IMG/VR virus record: IMGVR_UViG_3300033073_001074
Location: 1 to 64,000 of that record
Source of the DNA: a virus
Taxonomy: Duplodnaviria; Caudoviricetes
Direction: 5' to 3' (one strand)
Length of the DNA stretch: 64,000 bases
Under the pieces are notes generated by a model, which ran no database searches, had not been told where the DNA came from, and saw only the letters and a program-made list of their open reading frames with translations. A program made the position numbers and the translations under genes. Shown here piece after piece: positions 31,254 to 42,799 of this stretch. The first letter of the stretch is position 1; each line of letters begins with the position of its first letter.

Positions 31254-32714
31254 ATGAACCAAGCTGTACTTGAAAATTTACCAGTTGAACGAGCAGTCTT
31301 AGCTGGCATTTGCCAGTATGGCTTGGATGTATTTGTAGATATGGATTATGTACAACCTGATTTTTTCTCTCACGAGATTAATCAGGTTATATTTAGCTGT
31401 TTACAAGATATTATACAAAACAATCAAGCTGTTGAACCGCTATCTATTTTTTCTACAGCAAATAAACTTGGCGTATATGAATTAATTAACAAGCAAACTG
31501 AAATGGGATTCATCAGATCCCTATTTAATATGCCTGTAATTAAAGAAAATGTTCCTAAGTTTACAGCCAAACTAGCCAAGTTAAAACTGGCAAGAGATAT
31601 CAAGCGAGCAATTAAAAAATCTGAAAAAGAAATAGATAAGATTACTGGTGACGAAGCGATAGAAGAGATTATTTCTATTGCGGAAAAGCCTATTACCGAT
31701 GTCACTGAAAGTGCTTATACTGAACATTCTAATCAGACTATGCTCGTTGGAGAAAACATAGATGAATATGTTCAATATCTTATTGACAACCCGACTGATT
31801 ATCTTGGTATTCCAACAGGACTGTCTCAATTTGACGAAGCGTGCGGTGGCGGTATTAGAAGAAAATCTATTTGTCTAATCGGTGCTAGAACAGGTGTTGG
31901 CAAGAGTGTTATTTCTACTAATGTCGCACTGCACGTAGCGGGAAAGCTAAATATACCAGTGCTATATTTAGATACAGAAATGGATATCGGCGATCAAAGA
32001 ACTCGTATGCTGGCGAATCTGAGCAATGTTAAAATTAATGATATCGCAAAGGGTAAATTTGCAAATAGTTTTATGGCAAAAGAATCAGTAATTCGTTCAG
32101 CGAAATACCTCAAGACTATCCCATATCACTATATGTCAATTGCTGGTCAACCTTTTGATAACATTCTCAATATTACAAAGCGATGGATTCATCAACACGT
32201 TGGGTTTGACGAGAATGGTAAAACTAAAGATTGCTTATTAATCTATGATTACTTCAAATTAATGAGCAGTGCTGGATTATCCGCAGCTATGCAAGAATAT
32301 CAAGCATTAGGATTTCAAATTACTAAAATGAATGACTTCTGTATTGAATACGATATTCCTTGTTTATCTTTTGTTCAATTAAATCGTGAAGAAGACATTG
32401 CACAATCGGATAGACTATCTTGGCTTGCCACTACGGTTGCAAAGTTTCAAGTAAAAAGTGATGAAGAGATTGCCGATGATGGTGATCAACATGGAAATCG
32501 TAAAATTGTATTCTTAAAGCATCGTCACGGTACAGGCTTGGAGCCGGGTGATTATATTAATGTCAAAATGAACGGTGCTTGTGCTAAACTAGTTGAAGGA
32601 TATACAAGAAATCAATTAAAGAGTGGAGCAGCAAATAATGACCAGCGGAATGAAGACCTCCCATTCGAAGAAGGAGAATATCAGCAGGGAGAAGCTATAT
32701 TCGATATGCAGTGA
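31254..32714 (+). CDS. dnaB: replicative DnaB-type helicase
   Basis: ERAVLAGI N-domain; GIPTGL; Walker A GARTGVGKS; YLDTEM; IYDYFKL; SFVQLNRE; KHRHG. Confidence 0.92.
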   Translation: MNQAVLENLPVERAVLAGICQYGLDVFVDMDYVQPDFFSHEINQVIFSCLQDIIQNNQAVEPLSIFSTANKLGVYELINKQTEMGFIRSLFNMPVIKENVPKFTAKLAKLKLARDIKRAIKKSEKEIDKITGDEAIEEIISIAEKPITDVTESAYTEHSNQTMLVGENIDEYVQYLIDNPTDYLGIPTGLSQFDEACGGGIRRKSICLIGARTGVGKSVISTNVALHVAGKLNIPVLYLDTEMDIGDQRTRMLANLSNVKINDIAKGKFANSFMAKESVIRSAKYLKTIPYHYMSIAGQPFDNILNITKRWIHQHVGFDENGKTKDCLLIYDYFKLMSSAGLSAAMQEYQALGFQITKMNDFCIEYDIPCLSFVQLNREEDIAQSDRLSWLATTVAKFQVKSDEEIADDGDQHGNRKIVFLKHRHGTGLEPGDYINVKMNGACAKLVEGYTRNQLKSGAANNDQRNEDLPFEEGEYQQGEAIFDMQ

Positions 32715-33720
32715 GCTATCGGATAAAATACCATCACTGTTAGATGCGCTCAATATACAATACATGCAGTTCGATAATCGTATAGCATTTTCATGCCCTG
32801 CTCATGGAGGAGATAATCCTGAAGGTTCATGTATCTTTACAGAAGGAAACAAAACCAAAGGAAATTGGGTATGCTGGACGCATTCTTGTGAAAAAGACTA
32901 CGGCAGAAACATTATTGGCTTTGTAAGAGGAGTTTTGTCTCATAGACAAGGCAAAGAAGCAACATTCCACTCTGCTATTAATTATTGTCTATCGTTCTTG
33001 AACAAGACTTTAGTTGATATCAAAGAAGAGAAAATCTCAGAAACTATTTATAATAATAATAAGATGATGGAAATCGTAACTCGTACTCCTGAGCGTATAT
33101 CTTTAAATATACCCAGAGAAAAGATTATTGAATCTTTAGATATTCCATCTAAATATTATATTGATAGAGGATTTAATTCGGAAACATTAAAGGTCTTTGA
33201 TGTTGGAGAGTGCTATAATCCTGATAGACAAATGTATGGTAGAGCAGTTGCACCAATATATGACGAAGATTACAAATACATTGGATGTGTAGGCAGATCT
33301 CTTGATGAAAGTAATAAAAAGTATAAATGGATTAACAGTAAGGGCTTCAAAAAGTCCTGCTATCTATATGGATTATGGATTGCAAAGAAGTTTATACAAC
33401 AGACATCTACTGTTATTCTTGTAGAAGGACAGGGAGATGTATGGAGATTATATGAATCAGGAATAAAAAATTCTTTGGGTATATTTGGTGCAGATCTAAG
33501 CGAAGATCAATTAATTACTCTTGAAGAATTGGGAGCAATGAATGTCGTTATTTTAACAGACAACGACGAAGCTGGGATGAAAGCTGCAAAAGGCATTATA
33601 GATAAAGGCGGAAGACGATTCAACTATTTTGTTCCTAAAATATCAAGCAAAGATATTGGAGACATGACAGTTGAGCAAATCAATACAGAATTAAAACCTC
33701 AAATAGAAGGATTATTTTAA
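32638..33720 (+). CDS. dnaG: DNA primase (zinc finger plus TOPRIM)
   Basis: CPAH...CWTHSC zinc-binding domain; ILVEGQGDV; TDNDEAG; start uncertain (32623/32638/32650; GGAG favours 32638). Confidence 0.88.
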   Translation: MTSGMKTSHSKKENISREKLYSICSELSDKIPSLLDALNIQYMQFDNRIAFSCPAHGGDNPEGSCIFTEGNKTKGNWVCWTHSCEKDYGRNIIGFVRGVLSHRQGKEATFHSAINYCLSFLNKTLVDIKEEKISETIYNNNKMMEIVTRTPERISLNIPREKIIESLDIPSKYYIDRGFNSETLKVFDVGECYNPDRQMYGRAVAPIYDEDYKYIGCVGRSLDESNKKYKWINSKGFKKSCYLYGLWIAKKFIQQTSTVILVEGQGDVWRLYESGIKNSLGIFGADLSEDQLITLEELGAMNVVILTDNDEAGMKAAKGIIDKGGRRFNYFVPKISSKDIGDMTVEQINTELKPQIEGLF

Positions 33721-34541
33721 TGACTCAAATCATTGCATTTAGTGGCAAAAAGCAATCAGGTAAGAATACACTGTCTAATTTTTTGCACGCTTATCAAATG
33801 AAGACTTGGAATATTATTCAAGGTTTTGAAATTAGTGATAAAGGTGAGCTAATTGTAGAAACATTCATGCGTGATGAACGTGGAAAAATCGTAGAAGCAA
33901 AAGGTTTGATGGATGTAACTCGACTAGATATTGAATATGTAGTTTGGGCTATGGATAATATTTGGCCGTATGTGAAGCATTATGCGTTTGCCACTGCATT
34001 GAAAGAAGTTTTGATGAGCGTATTTAATATTGATAAAGATATTCTGTACGGTACAGATGAGCAAAAAAATACTCCTACAAAATATAAGTGGGAAGACATG
34101 CCAACAAAAGTTAAAGGCAAGTCAGGATTCATGACTGCTAGAGAATTCATGCAATATTTTGGAACGGATATTTGTCGTAAGATATATTCAGGTGTGTGGA
34201 TTGATCGTGCAATTAGAGATATCGAAGCTGAACAGTCCAAGTTAGCTATTATTTCTGATGTTAGGTTTGAAGATGAAGTGTTGGCAATACAAAATGCTGG
34301 GGGCAAAGTTATTCGATTAACAAGGTCTCTACCGGGCGAAGATGTTCATGAAAGTGAACTAGCGCTGGATAAATATGAAGGATTTGATGCAGTTATTGAC
34401 AATGCCAATATGACAATAGAAGAATCATGTAAAGCTGTATTAGAAGTGCTTGAAAAGTGGGACTGCTTTGGTGCGCCATTATTGCCAGCCGCTCCAATTA
34501 AAGGCCCAAGAAAGCCAAGCACTACTTCAATTAAGAAATGA
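33720..34541 (+). CDS. deoxynucleoside monophosphate kinase (T4 gp1-like)
   Basis: IIAFSGKKQSGKNT; YAFATALKE; REFMQYFGTDICR; IISDVRFEDE; HESE. Confidence 0.85.
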   Translation: MTQIIAFSGKKQSGKNTLSNFLHAYQMKTWNIIQGFEISDKGELIVETFMRDERGKIVEAKGLMDVTRLDIEYVVWAMDNIWPYVKHYAFATALKEVLMSVFNIDKDILYGTDEQKNTPTKYKWEDMPTKVKGKSGFMTAREFMQYFGTDICRKIYSGVWIDRAIRDIEAEQSKLAIISDVRFEDEVLAIQNAGGKVIRLTRSLPGEDVHESELALDKYEGFDAVIDNANMTIEESCKAVLEVLEKWDCFGAPLLPAAPIKGPRKPSTTSIKK

Positions 34542-35569
34542 TTACTACATATTTTCGTAGCTCATCGTTAAATAATTGGAAGTATTGCGAAATGCAGTAT
34601 TTCCTTACATATGTTCTTGGATGGCAATCTCCGAGTGGAAAAAAAGCAGATCTAGGAACTATTACTCATGCGGTGTTTGAAACATTAGCAATCTGCAAAA
34701 AGAGAACACAGTTTAATAAAAGAAATACAATGAAAGTCACTCAAGAACCTTTGGGTGACTTCTCTTTTACCTATGACCAATTATATACTGATGAGTTTGT
34801 TAATTACGTTTTAGGTAGAAGTTTTGATTATTACAAAGCAAACTGTACTCATAACACTTTTAATCAAAAAGATTATGAATTTTGTTATAAAATGGTGTGG
34901 GATACGCTGCACTATAACAAAGGCCAATTCGATCCTAGAAATAGAAAAGTAATTGACACAGAACCTCACTTTGACATTCCAATTAAAGAACCTTGGGCTA
35001 AATTTAGTTTTACAGGTCCGGATGGAAAAGAAATCTCTGGAAATCTTGCGATTAAAGGGACGATTGACCTTGTAACTGAACTTCCAGATGGTACAATAGA
35101 GGTAATCGACTGGAAGACTGGACAGAGGTTGGATTGGGCTACGGGCGAAAAGAAGGACTATGAAAAGCTAATGCAAGATGTGCAACTATTACTGTATCAC
35201 TATGCTATTGGCAAGTTATATCCTCAGCATCGTCATGCATTGATGACAATTTTCTTCTGTCGGGATGGTGGCCCATTCAGTCTTGCGTTTGACGAAGAAG
35301 ATGATAAAAATTTCCTTAAGACACTTGAAAAAATGTTTAAGGAGATTACAATAAATCAGAAACCTCGTCCTGTTTCTCGTGATCGTAAAAATTTCAAGTG
35401 TGAAAAACTTTGTCATTTTTACAAGACAAATTGGCCCAACACAGAAAAAACAATGTGTCATCATATTGAAGAACAATTACATACTATTGGAATGACTAAA
35501 ACAGTTGCAGAATGTTCCAGACCCGGATTCGTGATTGGAACATATAAAGACCCCGGAGCAGTAGAATGA
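34538..35569 (+). CDS. Cas4/RecB-like PD-(D/E)XK exonuclease with possible Fe-S cysteines
   Basis: SSLNNWKYC; GTITH; TEPHF; KGTIDLV...VIDWKTG; QLLLYH; CEKLC...C. Confidence 0.85.
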   Translation: MITTYFRSSSLNNWKYCEMQYFLTYVLGWQSPSGKKADLGTITHAVFETLAICKKRTQFNKRNTMKVTQEPLGDFSFTYDQLYTDEFVNYVLGRSFDYYKANCTHNTFNQKDYEFCYKMVWDTLHYNKGQFDPRNRKVIDTEPHFDIPIKEPWAKFSFTGPDGKEISGNLAIKGTIDLVTELPDGTIEVIDWKTGQRLDWATGEKKDYEKLMQDVQLLLYHYAIGKLYPQHRHALMTIFFCRDGGPFSLAFDEEDDKNFLKTLEKMFKEITINQKPRPVSRDRKNFKCEKLCHFYKTNWPNTEKTMCHHIEEQLHTIGMTKTVAECSRPGFVIGTYKDPGAVE

Positions 35570-37059
35570 TAATACCAGCAATTACAACTCACTACTCTTT
35601 ATTGCGTGGATTCATCAAACCCGATGAAGCTGCCAAAAAGTGTAAAGAACTTGGATATACGCATTGCTTACTTGCTGATACATCCTTAAGTGGAGTTGTA
35701 GAATTTTTTAGCTGTATGAAAAAAGAAGGTATAGTCCCCATCGTTGGTTGGAAAGCTGACGGTGGGCATTATATCGCTAAAACTTTAGCTGGATATAAAA
35801 TGCTTATCAGGCTTGTATCTGGTGAAAATATTATCTATACAGATAAAGATTTACAGTTCTATAAAGATGGAGAACTGGGATTAATGGAGGTTTGTTATGC
35901 AAATCAGGAAGATGCTATTCTTCATAGGATCATTCTTTGTTCAGGCTTAAAGACAACATTAAAAAAAGCGAAAGACATTGATCTTGGTGAACTTAAGAAA
36001 TACTTTGATTCAGACCATTTCTTTTTTTATTCTAATGATGGGATTGTTTTACAAACTAATCAGGTTCAAGCAAATGACAAATTAGTATCTGAGCTTCAAG
36101 ATTATACTATCTTCTCTAAGCCTAAACTTCCTGTAGTGGACTGCAAAGGAAAAACAGAAGAGGAGTATATTACTCAACTTTGTCGCGAAGGATGGCAGAA
36201 GAAGTTTATGCACCTTAAAGGTGAAAAGAAGCAAGAATATGCAGACCGTGTAAAATATGAGCTTTCTATTATCAATGGATTCGGTCTTGCTGGATATTTC
36301 TTAATCGTGCAAGATATTATTGCATATGTTAGAAATAATGGTTGGTTGCCGGGTCCGGGCCGTGGATCTGCGGGAGGTTGTCTTGTATCTTATCTTTTGG
36401 GCATTACAGAAATTGATCCAGTAAAATACGATCTTTTATTCTCAAGATTCTTGAATTCTGGACGATTTAGCAAAGACAATATTTCACTTCCTGATATTGA
36501 CATGGACGTTCCATCAAATCACAGAGATGAGATTATCGAATACTTAAAGAATAAGTATGGACACAATCGTGTATTCCAGATGATTACTTTTGGGCGATTG
36601 CAGGGACGATCAGTTATCAAAGAAGTGGCTCGTGTATATGCGGATTTATCTTTCTCAGAACTCAATGAGATTACTGAAAGTTTGCCGCCAGAAGCAAGCA
36701 TTTCTGATGAACTAGAAGAAATGGATGTTAAGTCTGTTATTATCTGGACTCTTGAAAACAAACCTGATAAACTAGCTAAATGGTGCAAATTGGTCAATGG
36801 AAAATTGACTGGTGAGTTGTCAGATATGTTCGATCTTGCTATAAGAATAGAAGGAACTTTTAAGAGTCATGGAAAACATCCGGCTGGAGTAATTATTTCT
36901 AATGATGATCTCATTAACGATGCTCCTCTAATTAAAGATAAAGATGGCAACCCTATTGTGTCATTTGAAATGCATGACTTGGATAAAGTGGGACTAACAA
37001 AGTTTGATGTCCTTGGAGTTAATCTTTTGGATAAAATTATGGAAATTACAAATGAATGA
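35566..37059 (+). CDS. dnaE: DNA polymerase III alpha, N-terminal half (degenerate PHP plus palm)
   Basis: YFLIVQDII; GPGRGSAGGCLVSYLLGITEIDPVKYDLLFSRFLN; PDIDMD; HPAGVII; GLTKFDVLG, then stop. Confidence 0.9.
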   Translation: MIIPAITTHYSLLRGFIKPDEAAKKCKELGYTHCLLADTSLSGVVEFFSCMKKEGIVPIVGWKADGGHYIAKTLAGYKMLIRLVSGENIIYTDKDLQFYKDGELGLMEVCYANQEDAILHRIILCSGLKTTLKKAKDIDLGELKKYFDSDHFFFYSNDGIVLQTNQVQANDKLVSELQDYTIFSKPKLPVVDCKGKTEEEYITQLCREGWQKKFMHLKGEKKQEYADRVKYELSIINGFGLAGYFLIVQDIIAYVRNNGWLPGPGRGSAGGCLVSYLLGITEIDPVKYDLLFSRFLNSGRFSKDNISLPDIDMDVPSNHRDEIIEYLKNKYGHNRVFQMITFGRLQGRSVIKEVARVYADLSFSELNEITESLPPEASISDELEEMDVKSVIIWTLENKPDKLAKWCKLVNGKLTGELSDMFDLAIRIEGTFKSHGKHPAGVIISNDDLINDAPLIKDKDGNPIVSFEMHDLDKVGLTKFDVLGVNLLDKIMEITNE

Positions 37060-37264
37060 TAAATTTTTAGATTACGCAACTGTTATTAGAGACGGTAATG
37101 ATATTGACTATAAAGATATTTCTTTGTCCGATCTGAGGAATCATGTTCCTTGGTATCGCGGAAAAAAGAATGGAGTTTATCAAGTTCATAGTAATTCTTT
37201 CTCTAAAATATATTACGACCTAAACGAAGCTATTGCAAAATTCTTAGAATTGAAGGGGAAATAA
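37052..37264 (+). CDS. hypothetical protein between the dnaE halves
   Basis: Start ATG 37052 overlapping the dnaE-N stop. Confidence 0.6.
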   Translation: MNDKFLDYATVIRDGNDIDYKDISLSDLRNHVPWYRGKKNGVYQVHSNSFSKIYYDLNEAIAKFLELKGK

Positions 37265-37971
37265 TGGGATTTAATACATATCGGGATTATATCGTTTTTG
37301 ACTTTGAAACAACTGGTAAAAATCCATATGGTTGTCAATTGACTCAGATTGCCGCTGTAGTCGTTCATGGCAAGAAGTTGACCCTTCAGCCCGGTGGAGT
37401 GTTCAACATCGAAGTAAGGCCCGAATTTGACGACGAGAAGGCTATTGCTGCGGGATTCGATCCGGTAGAACAAGAAGCGTTAGACATTACACGTAAAACC
37501 CGCGAGCAACTTGAAAAAGCCATTGGTCCAAAAGAAGCATGGAGTCAGTTTACAAACTTTGTAAATAAGTTTAATGCAAAAGGTAGTCAATACTATGCAC
37601 CGATTCCTGTAGGATATAACATTAATAATTTCGACTTGCCAATTGTGCATCGATATTGTAATATTTATGGTCCAAAAGATGAAAAGAGTGGCAGACAAAA
37701 GCTATTCAATCAAATCTTTAAAGTGGATATGATGGATAACATGTTTATGTGGTTTGAAGATCATAGCGATGTACAAAAGCTAAATATGGACTATCTTCGT
37801 GATTATCTAGGATTTCCGCAAGCATCCAAGGATAATGCTCACGATGCCTTGTTTGACGTTATCGATACCGCTAATCTATTTACTAGATTCCTAAAGTATC
37901 ATAGACGACATAGCTCAGCAGCTAAATTTGAAAAATCATTTGCAAATGCCAAAATGGATATTTCATTATGA
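37264..37971 (+). CDS. DEDDh 3'-5' exonuclease (DnaQ/epsilon-like)
   Basis: IVFDFETTG (Exo I); GYNINNFDL (Exo II); AHDALFDV (Exo III). Confidence 0.88.
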   Translation: MGFNTYRDYIVFDFETTGKNPYGCQLTQIAAVVVHGKKLTLQPGGVFNIEVRPEFDDEKAIAAGFDPVEQEALDITRKTREQLEKAIGPKEAWSQFTNFVNKFNAKGSQYYAPIPVGYNINNFDLPIVHRYCNIYGPKDEKSGRQKLFNQIFKVDMMDNMFMWFEDHSDVQKLNMDYLRDYLGFPQASKDNAHDALFDVIDTANLFTRFLKYHRRHSSAAKFEKSFANAKMDISL

Positions 37972-38183
37972 AAGTATTAGATATAAAAAAACCACAAATT
38001 TTTTATGTTGAAGTGGATGAACAAAGTCCTTGGAATTGGTACGTAAGAACCGTTGGCAAGGATAATACTGCAACATGGAATTATATGAACGATTATCAAC
38101 TTCATATAAATGAAGAACGCGAAAAATTGCTAGAAGAAGCATACATAGATTATGTCGAAAGGACATTTAATGGCTGCGCTTAA
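37968..38183 (+). CDS. hypothetical protein between the dnaE halves
   Basis: 71 aa, ATGA overlap. Confidence 0.55.
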   Translation: MKVLDIKKPQIFYVEVDEQSPWNWYVRTVGKDNTATWNYMNDYQLHINEEREKLLEEAYIDYVERTFNGCA

Positions 38184-39738
38184 TATTGATGATTTTGAAG
38201 ATCAAGCAACTTGGGATTTAATTAGTAGCGGTAAAACAAAAGGTGTGTTCCAGCTAGAATCAAAACTTGGTTCTAGTTGGGCCAAACGAGTTAAGCCTCG
38301 AAATATTGAAGAACTTGCAGACTTGATCTCCATTATTAGACCGGGAACACTAGAGGCTGAAATGGAAGGCAAATCCATGACTAAGCACTATGTTGACCGC
38401 AAATGGAAAATTGACGAAGTAAAATATATACATCCTGCTCTTGAGCCGTTACTAGGGAATACTTATGGTATTATTGTATATCAAGAACAGGCTATGAAAA
38501 TTGCAACAGCCTTAGCCGGTTTTACGCCGGAAGAGGCTGATTCTTTGCGTAAAGCTATGGGTAAAAAAGATGCAGCACTTATGAATGAAGTTGGTACAAA
38601 GTTTATCAATGGATGTAAAACAAAGGGAATTGTAGATGAGCAATCAGCAGCAACTATTTTTAACTGGATTCAGGCTTCAGCCCGATACTCATTTAACAAG
38701 AGTCACGCTGTAGCGTATGCTATTAATTCTTTTCGTTCGGCATATTGCAAAGCTCACTCGCCACTAAAATTTTATGAAGCATATCTAAACCATGCGCATA
38801 ATAAGCCAGATAAGCAAAGAGAACTTAAAGAGCTTATTATGGATGCTAAGCTAATTGGAATTGAAGTATATCCTCCTAGAATTGACAATCTCCATAGAAT
38901 ATTTACTCGCAATCCTGATAAGAATATTATTTATTTTGGATATAGCAATGTAAAAAGCGTTGGAGAAGGAGAGCAAGAAAAAATAGAACAGATCATAAAA
39001 TCAGCCCAAGAACAACTTCGAAAATCTATAGAGAACTTTTCTTGGTTGGAGATCATGTTTTATCTAGGATGCAAAATGAAAAGAAATGCCTTCATATCTT
39101 TGATTAGTGTAGGCACTTTTTCTAGTCGAGCAAATTCAATCTCTAGAAATGCAATGCTGTTTGAATTTGACCTATTTGACAAATTAAGCATTAAAGAACA
39201 AGAGTGGGTTATAGCAAATAATGATAACTCTTCTTTGCTACAATTAGTCAAAAGGATGATTAATGAGAATGCAAAAATTAGTGCAAAGCGAATGAAGTCC
39301 GTATTGGATATATATCAAGCTCTTGGCAATCCACCTTATTCACTAGAAGATGACTATGCGTGGATAGCAGAGACTGAACAGAAATTAATGGGATGTGCTT
39401 TGACATGTTCTAAAGTTGATATGTCTAATACAGATGTAAATATTACATGTGCAGAAATTGCTACGGGCGAAGTCAAAGCTATGAAAAGTGCCTGCCTAGC
39501 TATTAGAGTTAATGAAGTAAAAGAATATACTCTTAAAAGAGGTCAAAATATAGGAAGGGTAATGGGATTCATTTCCGGAGAAGATAACTCAGGAGAACTT
39601 GATTCTATTACGCTGTTTTGTGATGAATTTGAGAAATTTAAAAAGTTGCTTTTTATAGGCAATACGGTATTATTATATGGTGAGGTCCAAGAAAAGAAGG
39701 ACAAATCCTTTGTCGTAAAAGAAATAGTGCAAATTTAG
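38170..39738 (+). CDS. dnaE: DNA polymerase III alpha, C-terminal half (fingers, HhH, OB)
   Basis: Start ATG 38170 after AGGA; TWDLISSGKTKGVFQLES; IIRPG; TYGIIVYQEQ; LRKAMGKK; YSFNKSHAVAYA; OB-fold tail. Confidence 0.9.
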   Translation: MAALNIDDFEDQATWDLISSGKTKGVFQLESKLGSSWAKRVKPRNIEELADLISIIRPGTLEAEMEGKSMTKHYVDRKWKIDEVKYIHPALEPLLGNTYGIIVYQEQAMKIATALAGFTPEEADSLRKAMGKKDAALMNEVGTKFINGCKTKGIVDEQSAATIFNWIQASARYSFNKSHAVAYAINSFRSAYCKAHSPLKFYEAYLNHAHNKPDKQRELKELIMDAKLIGIEVYPPRIDNLHRIFTRNPDKNIIYFGYSNVKSVGEGEQEKIEQIIKSAQEQLRKSIENFSWLEIMFYLGCKMKRNAFISLISVGTFSSRANSISRNAMLFEFDLFDKLSIKEQEWVIANNDNSSLLQLVKRMINENAKISAKRMKSVLDIYQALGNPPYSLEDDYAWIAETEQKLMGCALTCSKVDMSNTDVNITCAEIATGEVKAMKSACLAIRVNEVKEYTLKRGQNIGRVMGFISGEDNSGELDSITLFCDEFEKFKKLLFIGNTVLLYGEVQEKKDKSFVVKEIVQI

Positions 39739-39747
39739 GAGATCAGT

Positions 39748-40077
39748 ATGAATGTTTGTTGTTTTATTGGCAAATTGGCAAATGACCCGGAACTAAGAGA
39801 AATTAATGGGACATATGTTGTTAATTTTTCTCTTGCTGTAGAGGACTATAGAAAATCTAATGATGGTGAAAAACATCGTCGAGTAGATTTTTTTGATTTT
39901 GAAGCGTGGGATACTGGCGCAACCACAATTGCTAAATATTTCAAGAAGGGCGATATGATGGCAATTGAAGCGGAAGCTAGGCAGCATAAGTGGACATCGA
40001 ACGAACAAAAGCGTCAAAAGGTTGTTTTTCGCGTGAAGACATTTAAATCAGCAGGATGTAAAGTGGACCAAGAATAA
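39748..40077 (+). CDS. ssb: single-stranded DNA-binding protein (short, no acidic tail)
   Basis: IGKLANDPELR...VNFSLAV...FFDFEAWD..A..IAKYFKKGD...W. Confidence 0.88.
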   Translation: MNVCCFIGKLANDPELREINGTYVVNFSLAVEDYRKSNDGEKHRRVDFFDFEAWDTGATTIAKYFKKGDMMAIEAEARQHKWTSNEQKRQKVVFRVKTFKSAGCKVDQE

Positions 40078-41723
40078 TGAAGAAAAAAGTATTATTTGTA
40101 ACGGAGGCATCGCACCATCCTACGGGATATTCTGTCTATACCAAAGAAGTATTGAGCAGATTATCAAAGTCTCAAGAAATTGAAGTAGCAGAGTTGGCTT
40201 GCTATGCTTCTCCAGAAGAAATTGAATCTCAAAATAATAGTTGGAAAATATATCCAAATATTCCTAGCGCAGAGCATAAAGAAGCTATGGATATGTATAA
40301 TTCTTCTATGTCAAACAAATTTGGGGATTTTTCTTTTAATAGAGTATTGCTTGATTTTAAGCCACACTTTGTTATGGATATTAGAGATTGGTGGATGCTT
40401 GAATTCGAAGAACGGTCTCCATTCAGATCGTTTTTTAATTGGGCAATTATGCCAACAGTAGATGCAGAACCTCAACACGGTCAATGGATAGACACATACT
40501 CATCTGCCGATGGAGTGTTTGCATATTCTGAATTTGGTAGAGATACTATGAAAAAGCAGTCTTCTAAAATTAATTTTGTGGATATTCCATCGCCATGTGC
40601 GAGCGATACTTTTCACAAGATAGAAGACAAGAAAGCTCTAAGATCACAATACGGACTCCGAGACGATATTGTTGTTTTCGGAACTGTTATGAGAAATCAG
40701 AGAAGAAAGTTATATCCAGACTTGTTCAAGGCATTTAGACTATTCCTTGATCAAAATCCAGAACAGACTAATGCATATCTTTATTGCCACACTGCATATC
40801 CAGATGTTGGTTGGGATATTCCGGATTTAATCAAAGAGAATGGATTGTCTAATCGAGTTCTGTTGACATATAAGTGTCGTCAATGTGGAAAAGTTAAGCC
40901 GATGTTTTTTAATGACGCTGTGGCTTTTTGCAATGATTGTAAATCTTTTACATATACAATTGTGGGGTTAAACAATAGAATTGACGATGTAGAACTCAAC
41001 AAGATATATAACCTATTTGATGTCTATATCCAATGGGCAAATAGTGAAGGTTGGGGTATGCCACAACTAGAAGCTGCGTATGCGGGATTACCAGTTGTAT
41101 CTGTTTATTACTCCGCTATGCAATCTTTGATTGATAACATCAGAGGAATTGGTATTAAGCCAGTTGGGTTCTATAAAGAGCTAGAAACTGGATGTTTAAG
41201 AGCAGTTCCAGATAATCAACAATTAGCGAGAATCATGGCTAATCTATGCGACGATAATTATAGAAAATTGGTTGCAACCAGATGCTATCATAATGCTAGA
41301 GATATTTACAATTGGGACTATACTGCAAACAAGTGGTTAAAATATTTCTTAAATACTCCAGTTAAAAATGAGAACCAAACATGGTTATCACCTCCTAGAT
41401 TTTTTAATCCTATGAGACAATCGCCAGCAAACATTACTTCGTTGCCGGTAACAGATCAAGTCGATTGGTTATTCCATAATGTTTTGGGTATGCCAGATAT
41501 GATCAACGGTTCTACATGGAAAAAGTTAGTTAAAGACTTAACATATAGAAGCGCCATGACAGGCATGATTCCCGGATATTATTTTAATGATAATTCGCAT
41601 CCGGATTACGAAAAGAAGTTTGAAGAATTTACTTTTGAAAAAGCATTCAACTTTTGTTTACAAATGCGTGATCATTACAATCAATGGGAAAACATTAGAG
41701 TTCAAATGTTAGGTGTAAAATGA
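40077..41723 (+). CDS. glycosyltransferase family 4 with internal zinc-ribbon insert
   Basis: VMRNQRRKLYPDL; EGWGMPQLEAAYAGLPVV EX7E signature; inserted CRQC...CNDC. Confidence 0.85.
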   Translation: MKKKVLFVTEASHHPTGYSVYTKEVLSRLSKSQEIEVAELACYASPEEIESQNNSWKIYPNIPSAEHKEAMDMYNSSMSNKFGDFSFNRVLLDFKPHFVMDIRDWWMLEFEERSPFRSFFNWAIMPTVDAEPQHGQWIDTYSSADGVFAYSEFGRDTMKKQSSKINFVDIPSPCASDTFHKIEDKKALRSQYGLRDDIVVFGTVMRNQRRKLYPDLFKAFRLFLDQNPEQTNAYLYCHTAYPDVGWDIPDLIKENGLSNRVLLTYKCRQCGKVKPMFFNDAVAFCNDCKSFTYTIVGLNNRIDDVELNKIYNLFDVYIQWANSEGWGMPQLEAAYAGLPVVSVYYSAMQSLIDNIRGIGIKPVGFYKELETGCLRAVPDNQQLARIMANLCDDNYRKLVATRCYHNARDIYNWDYTANKWLKYFLNTPVKNENQTWLSPPRFFNPMRQSPANITSLPVTDQVDWLFHNVLGMPDMINGSTWKKLVKDLTYRSAMTGMIPGYYFNDNSHPDYEKKFEEFTFEKAFNFCLQMRDHYNQWENIRVQMLGVK

Positions 41724-42799
41724 AAATAAGATATATTGCTAACTTTACAGATGGAACAGAGTGGTCTAGAATAGCTACTTATAATGCGCTAAATCTTAAC
41801 GCCATAGGATATGATGTATATTGTGAAGATTTTAAATACAATCAAAACAATATATTATTAGAAGAAGAAATTGACTCACTACTATCTAAAGATAAGAATG
41901 GTGTTAAGTTTGATTATTGCTTACAGCAAGTTCTTCCTAATGACTACAAGTATTATGGTGGCGTTAAAAATGTTGGAGTAATTGGATTAGAATCAAGAAC
42001 TATATCTTTTACTCCTTGGATTAAAGCATTTAAAATGATGGACTATATGCTGGTTCCTGACCGATATACAAGCCACGCATTAGCTTCGATTGGAATTAAT
42101 TCTAGAATTTTTCATTACTCTTTTAATTATGAAGCAGCGGCCAGTTTTGAAGTTTCACCGATAAAAGAAATTGAAAAATCTTTTAACTTCTTTGTCGGTG
42201 GAAATATGGGGAGATTAAAGAATCTTGAATCGGCACTTATTGCGTTTCATTCTGAGTTTGACAAAACTGAATCAGTAAATATTATTTTATGCTTTGATAA
42301 AGAAATTCAAGCTATGTCAGAGTATCTAAATAAGTTTTCAGAGTTGACTAGACTGGGAAACAGAGTTCATAAAGAAATTATTCTGTCGTCCGCTGATGAC
42401 CGAAATAGGATTGCGAACTTCTTAGCTAATGCAAATGTGTATATAGCTCCTGATTATGGAAATAGCTGTGATTATTTTGCTATGAATGCTATGGCAAAAG
42501 GGTCTCCGGTGATCTATAATAGTAATATAGGAATAAAAGAATTTTGCCAACAAAGTGGAATAGAGGTGAGTTCAATCGACGAGCCTTGCTTTGGGGTCAC
42601 AGAAACAATTCCGTTCTTATTTTCATCTAAAGATATCTGGTCGAGAATTAATATTCTTGATTTAAGAAGTAAGATGCGTCAAATATATGAGATTTGGAAA
42701 AATAATCCAAGTTACTACAATCAAATAAGAACGAATACTGTTAATGAGATCAGAAAATTTGATTATCGTATTAATAATTTAAATGGGAGCTTTTTATGA
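41720..42799 (+). CDS. GT-B/GT4-like protein, probably degenerate
   Basis: GT4-like layout (KNLESALIAFHSEF; AMAKGSPVI) but the EX7E position reads NSCDYFAMN. Confidence 0.6.
   Translation: MKIRYIANFTDGTEWSRIATYNALNLNAIGYDVYCEDFKYNQNNILLEEEIDSLLSKDKNGVKFDYCLQQVLPNDYKYYGGVKNVGVIGLESRTISFTPWIKAFKMMDYMLVPDRYTSHALASIGINSRIFHYSFNYEAAASFEVSPIKEIEKSFNFFVGGNMGRLKNLESALIAFHSEFDKTESVNIILCFDKEIQAMSEYLNKFSELTRLGNRVHKEIILSSADDRNRIANFLANANVYIAPDYGNSCDYFAMNAMAKGSPVIYNSNIGIKEFCQQSGIEVSSIDEPCFGVTETIPFLFSSKDIWSRINILDLRSKMRQIYEIWKNNPSYYNQIRTNTVNEIRKFDYRINNLNGSFL

Follow-up and report, generated by a model that had tools for sequence, protein, structure and literature searches.

We examined the DNA polymerase genes of an uncultured freshwater phage, represented by a 64,000-nucleotide (nt) stretch of IMG/VR record IMGVR_UViG_3300033073_001074 (the window). 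Five co-directional genes with overlapping stop and start codons occupy positions 35566-39738, as read from the list of open reading frames (ORFs), Pfam and PHROGs (Table 1). In order, they encode the N-terminal half (N-half) of a DnaE-type DNA polymerase III (Pol III) alpha subunit, a protein of 70 amino acids (aa), a DEDDh exonuclease (Exo), a 71-aa ORF and the C-terminal half (C-half) of DnaE. An initial annotation, made from the letters of the window, had described a DnaE split into two genes with an exonuclease between them, and Pfam and PHROGs place each of these elements where it had been described. The two DnaE ORFs lie ~1.1 kb apart with three genes filling the gap, so that this Pol III alpha is not encoded as a single polypeptide; the halves match adjoining, non-overlapping stretches of phrog_405 (246-609 and 623-1053). 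We consider it likely that the replicative polymerase of this phage is a DnaE-type Pol III alpha formed from two separately translated polypeptides.

The catalytic domains of DnaE are divided between the two genes. The PHP domain of the N-half scores above cut-off (PF02811, E=3.1e-11, residues 8-153), and its nuclease activity is doubtful because the canonical first His ligands appear, by eye in an alignment with E. coli alpha, to have been replaced. The palm profile is complete (PF07733, 1-260/260, E=1.5e-74). Its D312, D314 and D481, located within PDIDxD and KFDxLG motifs, are invariant in 53 N-halves; the E. coli counterparts of these motifs carry D401, D403 and D555. The C-half contains the fingers (PF17657, 26-166/166, E=8.9e-46), aligning to Taq alpha 650-901. 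In solved Pol III alpha structures, the fingers bind the incoming nucleotide and the template. Matches of the window C-half to the HhH and OB profiles are weak, both below cut-off (PF14579, 19.5 bits; PF01336, 19.1 bits); the same two profiles score above cut-off in a relative, L177, and both domains are modelled in the contiguous homologue P0004 described below.

To locate the break, both halves were aligned to E. coli alpha, a check that the initial annotation had suggested. N-half residue 489 aligns to residue 563 and C-half residue 15 to residue 591, with the break at E. coli alpha ~564-590. On this alignment the cut falls between palm and fingers, just past the strand with the third catalytic Asp (KFDxLG), in agreement with the earlier description of an N-half ending after this motif and a C-half starting at the next conserved block. 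The spacing from KFDxLG to GxTxGVFQL is 47-48 aa in homologues in which DnaE is contiguous, and 48 aa when summed over the window halves (with the C-half starting at 38170). By this count, no residue is lost or gained at the cut.

The surroundings of the break were modelled in P0004, a contiguous natural homologue folded with AlphaFold2 (AF2) from a 98-row alignment of unmodified sequences only. The model has a mean predicted local confidence (pLDDT) of 95.5 and a predicted template modelling (TM) score (pTM) of 0.91. It resembles full-length DnaE structures (7PU7, TM 0.70/0.72; 3E0D, 0.70/0.68; 2HNH, TMt 0.80) and fits PolC less well (~0.57). In the model, a strand (573-581) is followed by a helix (582-594), a nine-residue loop (595-603) and a second helix (604-612), and the stop/start pair of the window maps to P0004 ~594-597, at the start of the inter-helix loop. 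With the cut in a loop and no residue missing, the two chains should therefore be able to adopt the single-chain fold.

Every junction in the module has its own stop and its own start. The ATG of the N-half overlaps the stop of the upstream PD-(D/E)XK nuclease gene as ATGA, with a GGAG 8-11 nt upstream. The N-half stop and the ATG of the first small ORF at 37052 overlap as ATGAATGA, the 70-aa ORF stop and the Exo start as TAATG, and the Exo stop and the 71-aa ORF start as ATGA. For the first small ORF, the ORF finder lists a TTG at 37004 (86 aa); the conserved start is the ATG at 37052 (70 aa). For the C-half there are two in-frame ATGs, at 38152 (528 aa) and 38170 (522 aa). The second is most likely the start: an AAGGA Shine-Dalgarno sequence lies 6-7 nt ahead of it, and it agrees with relatives. 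Two features of the initial annotation stand: the ~1.1-kb gap does hold an Exo and two small ORFs, all coupled, and each half does have a clean start, stop and ribosome-binding site. Read-through or frameshifting into one chain was rejected on the stop and start found at each junction; in the window and in L001 the reading frame is the same for the N-half, Exo and C-half, whereas in L007 it is not. We found no terminator-like site between the DnaE halves, and promoter- or terminator-like sites were not enriched.

Table 1. Genes of the polymerase module and its immediate neighbours in the window.
Feature	Position	Strand	Basis and remarks
PD-(D/E)XK nuclease gene	34538..35569	+	PF12705 E=1.3e-17; conserved upstream neighbour
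DnaE N-half, 497 aa: reduced PHP, palm, thumb	35566..37059	+	PF02811, PF07733
Conserved small protein, 70 aa	37052..37264	+	homologues in 101 loci; candidate accessory subunit
DEDDh (DnaQ/epsilon-like) 3'-5' exonuclease, 235 aa	37264..37971	+	PF00929 E=1.3e-11; phrog_192 E=2.9e-25
Variable 71-aa ORF, outside the conserved core	37968..38183	+	sporadic; without Pfam or PHROG match
DnaE C-half, 522 aa: fingers, HhH-like region, putative OB fold	38170..39738	+	PF17657
Single-stranded DNA-binding protein (SSB) gene, conserved downstream neighbour	39748..40077	+	PF00436 E=5.6e-21

The two-gene arrangement is widely conserved. Wherever the contig reaches, 24 IMG/VR loci sharing 72-92% identity keep the gene order N-half, small ORF, Exo, C-half. 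A profile search and two further searches yielded ~170 further loci at 38-52% identity, in essentially all of which the order is PD-(D/E)XK nuclease, N-half, (small ORF), Exo, C-half, SSB and a glycosyltransferase-like gene. The core layout, with or without the small ORF, is present in ~118 distinct viral loci and persists at identities as low as ~40%. The interval between the two halves measures 660-700 nt in a subclade with only Exo in the gap and ~890-1020 nt where the small ORF and Exo are both present, and it is larger where extra ORFs have been inserted. A search run exhaustively over 1.84 billion representatives bore out the conservation of the split point, another check proposed at the outset. 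Among the 150 top-ranking clusters at 50% identity (38-85% identical), no fewer than 132 terminate no more than 15 residues from the window N-half end. A word-indexed database gave 2086 clusters at E<=1e-30, and those listed are all metagenomic, with PHP and palm and without fingers. The closest annotated phage DnaE match is contiguous and 35% identical, with no cultured phage closer; cellular genomes reach 29-39% identity among the best matches listed.

The core genes are also well maintained. Pairwise ratios of non-synonymous to synonymous substitution (dN/dS) are 0.06-0.10 for the N-half, 0.05-0.14 for the 70-aa ORF, 0.07-0.09 for Exo and 0.07-0.14 for the C-half, values that are rough since dS is saturated, though far below 1 for these core genes. 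These four genes are evidently under strong purifying selection. For the 71-aa ORF, dN/dS is 0.5-0.6.

Several relatives differ in the architecture of a half. In L176:4274-6264, the N-half itself appears as two ORFs, with a break near residue 310 and ~290 nt between the matching parts; phrog_13169 and phrog_12219 start or stop near the same residue. These observations hint that phage DnaE has a further site of recurrent breakage. The N-half of L006:8001-9611 has 536 aa, compared with ~497-500 aa elsewhere, owing to an insertion of ~36-39 aa. In one subclade (L083:6119-7732, L093:7552-9165), the first conserved motif of the fingers is preceded in the C-half by a Cys-containing N-terminal extension of ~25 aa (MSKKYQYxCGC...).

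A small number of relatives encode the polymerase as one gene at the same site. Of the 150 representatives, eight (including P0004, P0042, P0067, P0078 and P0087) are contiguous at the break site of the window. The genomic context of this form comes from one contig, L104/L105, a 158.5-kb genome with terminal repeats. There, the PD-(D/E)XK gene is followed by the small ORF and Exo, both relocated upstream, and then by a contiguous DnaE whose N and C parts are joined exactly at the window's break, with SSB and the glycosyltransferase-like gene 3' of it. A natural relative contiguous at exactly this break, with the accessory genes upstream, is new here.

We placed the two forms on a tree of N-half residues 111-490 and C-half residues 15-180 (128 rows; IQ-TREE quick search, LG+G4), with three ordinary phage DnaE genes as the outgroup. 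The phage clade has 100% support. Contiguous forms emerge in three or four positions among the split forms, most of them close to the base, and the starred branches of the tree force at least two changes of state. An approximately unbiased (AU) test rejects a single clade of all 118 split rows (delta lnL 59.6, p 0.0035), with the caveats that the group was named after the tree had been seen, that the contiguous representatives sit on long branches and that phage recombination could mimic multiple events. These results indicate that one-gene and two-gene states have interconverted more than once. Such swapping at the same residue, in whichever direction it ran, is as expected if both forms yield the same working enzyme.

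The gene at the heart of the break has the hallmarks of a proofreading exonuclease. PF00929 covers Exo residues 10-206, and phrog_192 is annotated as 'DNA polymerase exonuclease subunit'. D13, E15, D124, H193 and D198 are invariant in 45 diverse sequences, and so are R214 and F226 of the C-terminal tail, which lie within KFEKxF. In E. coli, the C-terminal segment of epsilon binds alpha. By analogy, the Exo tail may be a docking peptide on the polymerase. Judged by its gene position, coupling, conserved tail and intact DEDDh residues, Exo is most likely the proofreader.

The two small ORFs differ in standing. The initial annotation had suggested that small accessory subunits are encoded within the split; this is plausible only for the first (37052-37264), the second being sporadic and weakly constrained. 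Homologues of the 70-aa protein occur in 101 loci (61 unique). AF2 gives it a fold of a helix, four strands and a helix (pLDDT 88.9). It has no Pfam, PHROG or Foldseek match, and its structural matches by VIA are sub-threshold and not significant (YkuJ, Z 6.0; AP2/WGR-like, Z ~4.5). In L104 it accompanies Exo even though DnaE is contiguous, and it therefore looks less like a patch for the break than like a partner of Exo or of the polymerase. It is probably a further small subunit. Homologues of the 71-aa ORF are found in three lineages only (the window, L007 and L004/L021), and the ORF is absent from the closest relatives, L001 and L022.

Other genes are found in the gap in some relatives. 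A Cys-rich ORF of 265-276 aa with several CxxC motifs lies between the small ORF and Exo in L004:9712-10542, at the same place in L021 and in L012:9773-10570. It has no Pfam match and is unrelated to the DUF559 endonucleases described below; it may be a mobile endonuclease. Additional genes, encoding a member of the YpsA/SLOG family (PF06908, E=2e-18) and a protein with DUF6165, lie in the gaps of L172:8740-9243 and L177:8966-9388. The break region thus acts as a landing pad for cargo genes. Between the window and L001, identity is 92-98% in the N-half, small ORF and Exo and only 74.5% in the C-half, with the drop falling at the point where the window has the 71-aa ORF and L001 lacks it (window 37971-38183 versus L001:10403-10422). 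This suggests a recombination joint at the Exo/C-half boundary.

Together these features suggest how the enzyme would be made. One polycistronic mRNA would be translated, with coupling, from the N-half through the small protein and Exo to the C-half. The N-half would supply the reduced PHP scaffold, the palm with its three metal-binding Asp residues and the thumb, while the C-half would supply the fingers, the DNA-binding HhH-like region and the OB fold. The two would associate non-covalently into the Pol III alpha fold and, with the palm in one chain and the fingers in the other, a single active site would therefore be built across a non-covalent interface. Exo would serve as the proofreader, docking through its C-terminal tail as E. 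coli epsilon does on alpha, and the 70-aa protein would join as a further small subunit. Co-transcription and translational coupling would favour stoichiometric, local assembly.

Of the alternatives to this assembly, the one that survives best is that both halves are functional and yet form no constitutive heterodimer, either because DNA, Exo or the small protein bridges them, or because the N-half and Exo have a repair-type role. Exo, usually with the small protein, is always encoded at the break, which could mean that it is needed for holding the halves together, and the 70-aa protein has its weak AP2/WGR-like resemblance. However, the small ORF is lacking from the subclade with 660-700-nt, Exo-only gaps. 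In L104, moreover, both Exo and the small ORF are found alongside a DnaE that is contiguous at this site; they are thus more than a bridge between the parts of a broken enzyme. As for a role without the C-half, we know of no palm that is catalytically competent without fingers in Pol III alpha, as far as structural knowledge goes. We regard this alternative as unlikely.

A split gene could also be a decaying or non-essential remnant, with a host polymerase or an unrecognised phage enzyme replicating the genome. No clamp or clamp loader was found to accompany the polymerase, and very divergent polymerases can escape searches at the Pfam level. Against this, dN/dS is ~0.05-0.14 in both halves, Exo and the 70-aa ORF, the catalytic Asp and DEDDh residues are invariant, and the layout is kept to ~40% identity in more than 100 distinct loci. 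The neighbourhood argues in the same direction. By Pfam, a primase, a deoxynucleoside monophosphate (dNMP) kinase and the PD-(D/E)XK nuclease lie upstream and SSB downstream, and the genes around the DnaE halves therefore form a full replication module. The PD-(D/E)XK gene is directly or closely upstream of the N-half, and SSB follows the C-half, in nearly all related loci. A candidate for another polymerase is also missing where genomes are complete: four CheckV-complete relatives (155-244 kb; two with terminal repeats) have one PF07733 match each and no match to PolA (PF00476) or PolB (PF00136), and PF00136 also has none in the window's own record, a 75.6-kb fragment. A remnant is thus very improbable.

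The gene neighbourhood has a wider extent. Across window positions 32623-42799, consecutive genes form a long run in which stop codons overlap or abut the starts that follow, leading from the primase through the polymerase module and SSB to a glycosyltransferase-like cluster. The run is consistent with one large translationally coupled operon.

Slightly less probable still is that an intron, a split intein or an unknown type of ligation restores a single chain from the two halves, so that the mature enzyme is an ordinary single-chain DnaE. There is precedent: split inteins, in the presence or absence of a free-standing homing endonuclease, reconnect the pieces of cyanobacterial DnaE and of metagenomic 'fractured' DnaE (Dassa et al. 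2009, PMC2677866). Moreover, relatives of this same gene have split inteins at another site. At the window's break, by contrast, neither half has a Pfam match to Hint or Intein_splicing blocks, as the initial annotation had stated from motifs, and the gap has no endonuclease match (Pfam, PHROGs). The junction has no spare residues for an intein, with ~8 aa after and ~3-9 aa before homologous sequence, and the summed length equals that of the contiguous forms. The N-terminal part of a split intein (Int-N) requires ~90-105 aa. An intein at the break was rejected on these grounds, and an intron likewise, as Rfam models matched nothing in 35000-40500 at E<=1. The gap consists entirely of coding sequence, its protein genes are under purifying selection, and their overlapping stops and starts leave no non-coding RNA.

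The negative Hint result in the window is meaningful because the same scan finds inteins at other sites in relatives. A second break, at C-half residue ~183, occurs in L104:9536-11538, L165:3530-6443, L172:10447-13272 and L177:10094-12950. There the upstream piece is extended by ~90 aa, a free-standing ORF of ~300 aa follows, and the downstream piece has ~40 additional aa. In L177, PF01079 (Hint) and PF14890 (Intein_splicing) match the upstream piece, and the middle ORF matches DUF559 (Vsr-like endonuclease); among the relatives, DUF559 endonuclease ORFs are restricted to this intein-bearing site. In L161:8010-10358 (also in L189), a contiguous in-frame intein of ~258 aa with an HNH domain lies at C-half residue ~70 (PF14890, E=9e-14). 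With the residue-183 break on top of the main one, the polymerase of some phages therefore comes from three genes, with breaks of two kinds.

An assembly or gene-calling artefact is extremely unlikely: although the window comes from a metagenomic viral contig and a related contig end is chimeric, the ORFs have proper starts, stops and Shine-Dalgarno sites. The arrangement also recurs in well over 100 contigs that were obtained independently from numerous samples, some of them complete genomes with terminal redundancy. Its presence in ~118 distinct related sequences from independent metagenomes goes far beyond chance and tells against the artefact that the initial annotation had named as a possible refutation. 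The chimeric end is that of L010:14086-14619, almost certainly a chimeric assembly, in which a cellular-type contiguous DnaE fragment (GLVKFDFLGL...) is fused in-frame to the glycosyltransferase-like N-terminus.

Some points do weigh against a two-polypeptide replicase. We infer from sequence that the halves, Exo and the small protein bind one another and that the assembly polymerises DNA, and the roles given to Exo and the 70-aa protein are putative in the same way. The 70-aa protein has no recognisable fold relative and is missing from the Exo-only-gap subclade. The status of sole polymerase is carried over from relatives and from detection at the Pfam level, the window record being ~50% complete. 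The sliding clamp PF00712 was not found in the complete relatives, other clamp families not having been searched, and no canonical clamp-binding motif could be established in the C-half, where the conserved region SRxxMLYEYD is non-canonical. The saturation of dS mentioned above belongs with these points.

On the other side stand the gene anatomy, the position and cleanness of the break within a loop, the lack of splicing elements, purifying selection, clade-wide conservation, the interconversion of one- and two-gene forms, and the fact that complete relatives show no second recognisable polymerase. They support the reading that the initial annotation had put forward, that of an intein-free, two-polypeptide C-family polymerase with an epsilon-like exonuclease gene in its break.

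Compared with single-chain DnaE (E. coli 2HNH/5FKU, T. aquaticus 2HPI/3E0D, M. tuberculosis DnaE1 7PU7), the phage enzyme has the same domain order, with PHP, palm, thumb and fingers followed by putative HhH and OB domains. The catalytic Asp triad is also shared, and in both cases a DEDDh exonuclease (epsilon, DnaQ) has a gene of its own. In contrast to these, its chain is divided between two genes, cut between palm and fingers with the exonuclease gene inside the break, the PHP domain of the window's subclade is ~100 aa shorter, and no tau-binding C-terminal domain was seen in it. With split-intein and fractured DnaE it shares a dnaE in two genes, and with the fractured form also adjacent pieces with a gene between them; its relatives even carry a fractured site of the type described by Dassa et al. 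elsewhere in the C-half. The break in the window differs in lacking an intein, in holding a DEDDh exonuclease gene and in its position.

Intein-free division of a phage replicase has been described in other settings. The split B-family polymerase of PhiKZ, DNAP-N/DNAP-C, is a stable 1:1 complex, as established by cryo-EM and activity assays (PMC13648687), and therefore provides an experimental precedent for a stable two-chain phage replicase. In T4-like phages gp43 is found in two genes, as cited in PMC2677866. Both resemble the present case as intein-free phage replicases in two polypeptides that work, or here would work, as a non-covalent complex. They belong, however, to family B rather than C, their exonuclease is a domain, and no proofreading gene lies in the break. 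Group 2.2 jumbo phages have an intein-free 'minimal' Pol III alpha module in two proteins, consisting of a nucleotidyltransferase and a template-binding core without PHP or other domains, encoded at distant loci alongside a family-B replicase (Iyer et al. 2021, PMC7824862). In contrast, the window enzyme is full-length (PHP, fingers and a weak OB match) and has adjacent pieces, with no other polymerase recognisable beside it. Outside replicases, the nrdA of phage Aeh1 is split by insertion of a mobile endonuclease, and its chains are thought to reassemble non-covalently, as cited in PMC2677866. It too is an essential enzyme in two chains; unlike there, the window gap holds no endonuclease, the insert is probably a functional partner gene, and the arrangement is clade-wide, not sporadic. 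We found no description of an intein-free, full-length, two-gene DnaE in surveys of DnaE and viral replicases or in the full-text literature, a search with subscription journals outside its scope.

A further proposal, which we make tentatively and regard as rather doubtful, is that the break is more than tolerated and that the module represents a new C-family replicase architecture. Its core would have four parts, alpha-N, alpha-C, Exo and the 70-aa protein, with Exo and the small subunit docking at or near the palm/fingers seam. In E. coli, the proofreader docks on the PHP domain of alpha. If seam docking were true, a separate fingers subunit could open, exchange or be regulated independently, and the clade, through its repeated changes between one-gene and two-gene forms, would be a natural experiment on how a Pol III active site copes with assembly from two chains.

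Pol III alpha, an antibiotic target, serves bacteria as their replicase, and its characterised members are, to our knowledge, all single chains or religated by inteins. If a two-polypeptide Pol III alpha is indeed the replicase of this large, abundant group of aquatic phages, the connection between palm and fingers would be dispensable. The break would then offer a natural split point for engineering and study, for example through separate labelling or exchange of the fingers, and the clade allows natural one-gene and two-gene variants to be compared directly as matched pairs. There is also a consequence for annotation, as metagenomic entries named 'DNA polymerase-3 subunit alpha' or 'PHP domain-containing protein' are half-enzymes in thousands of cases.

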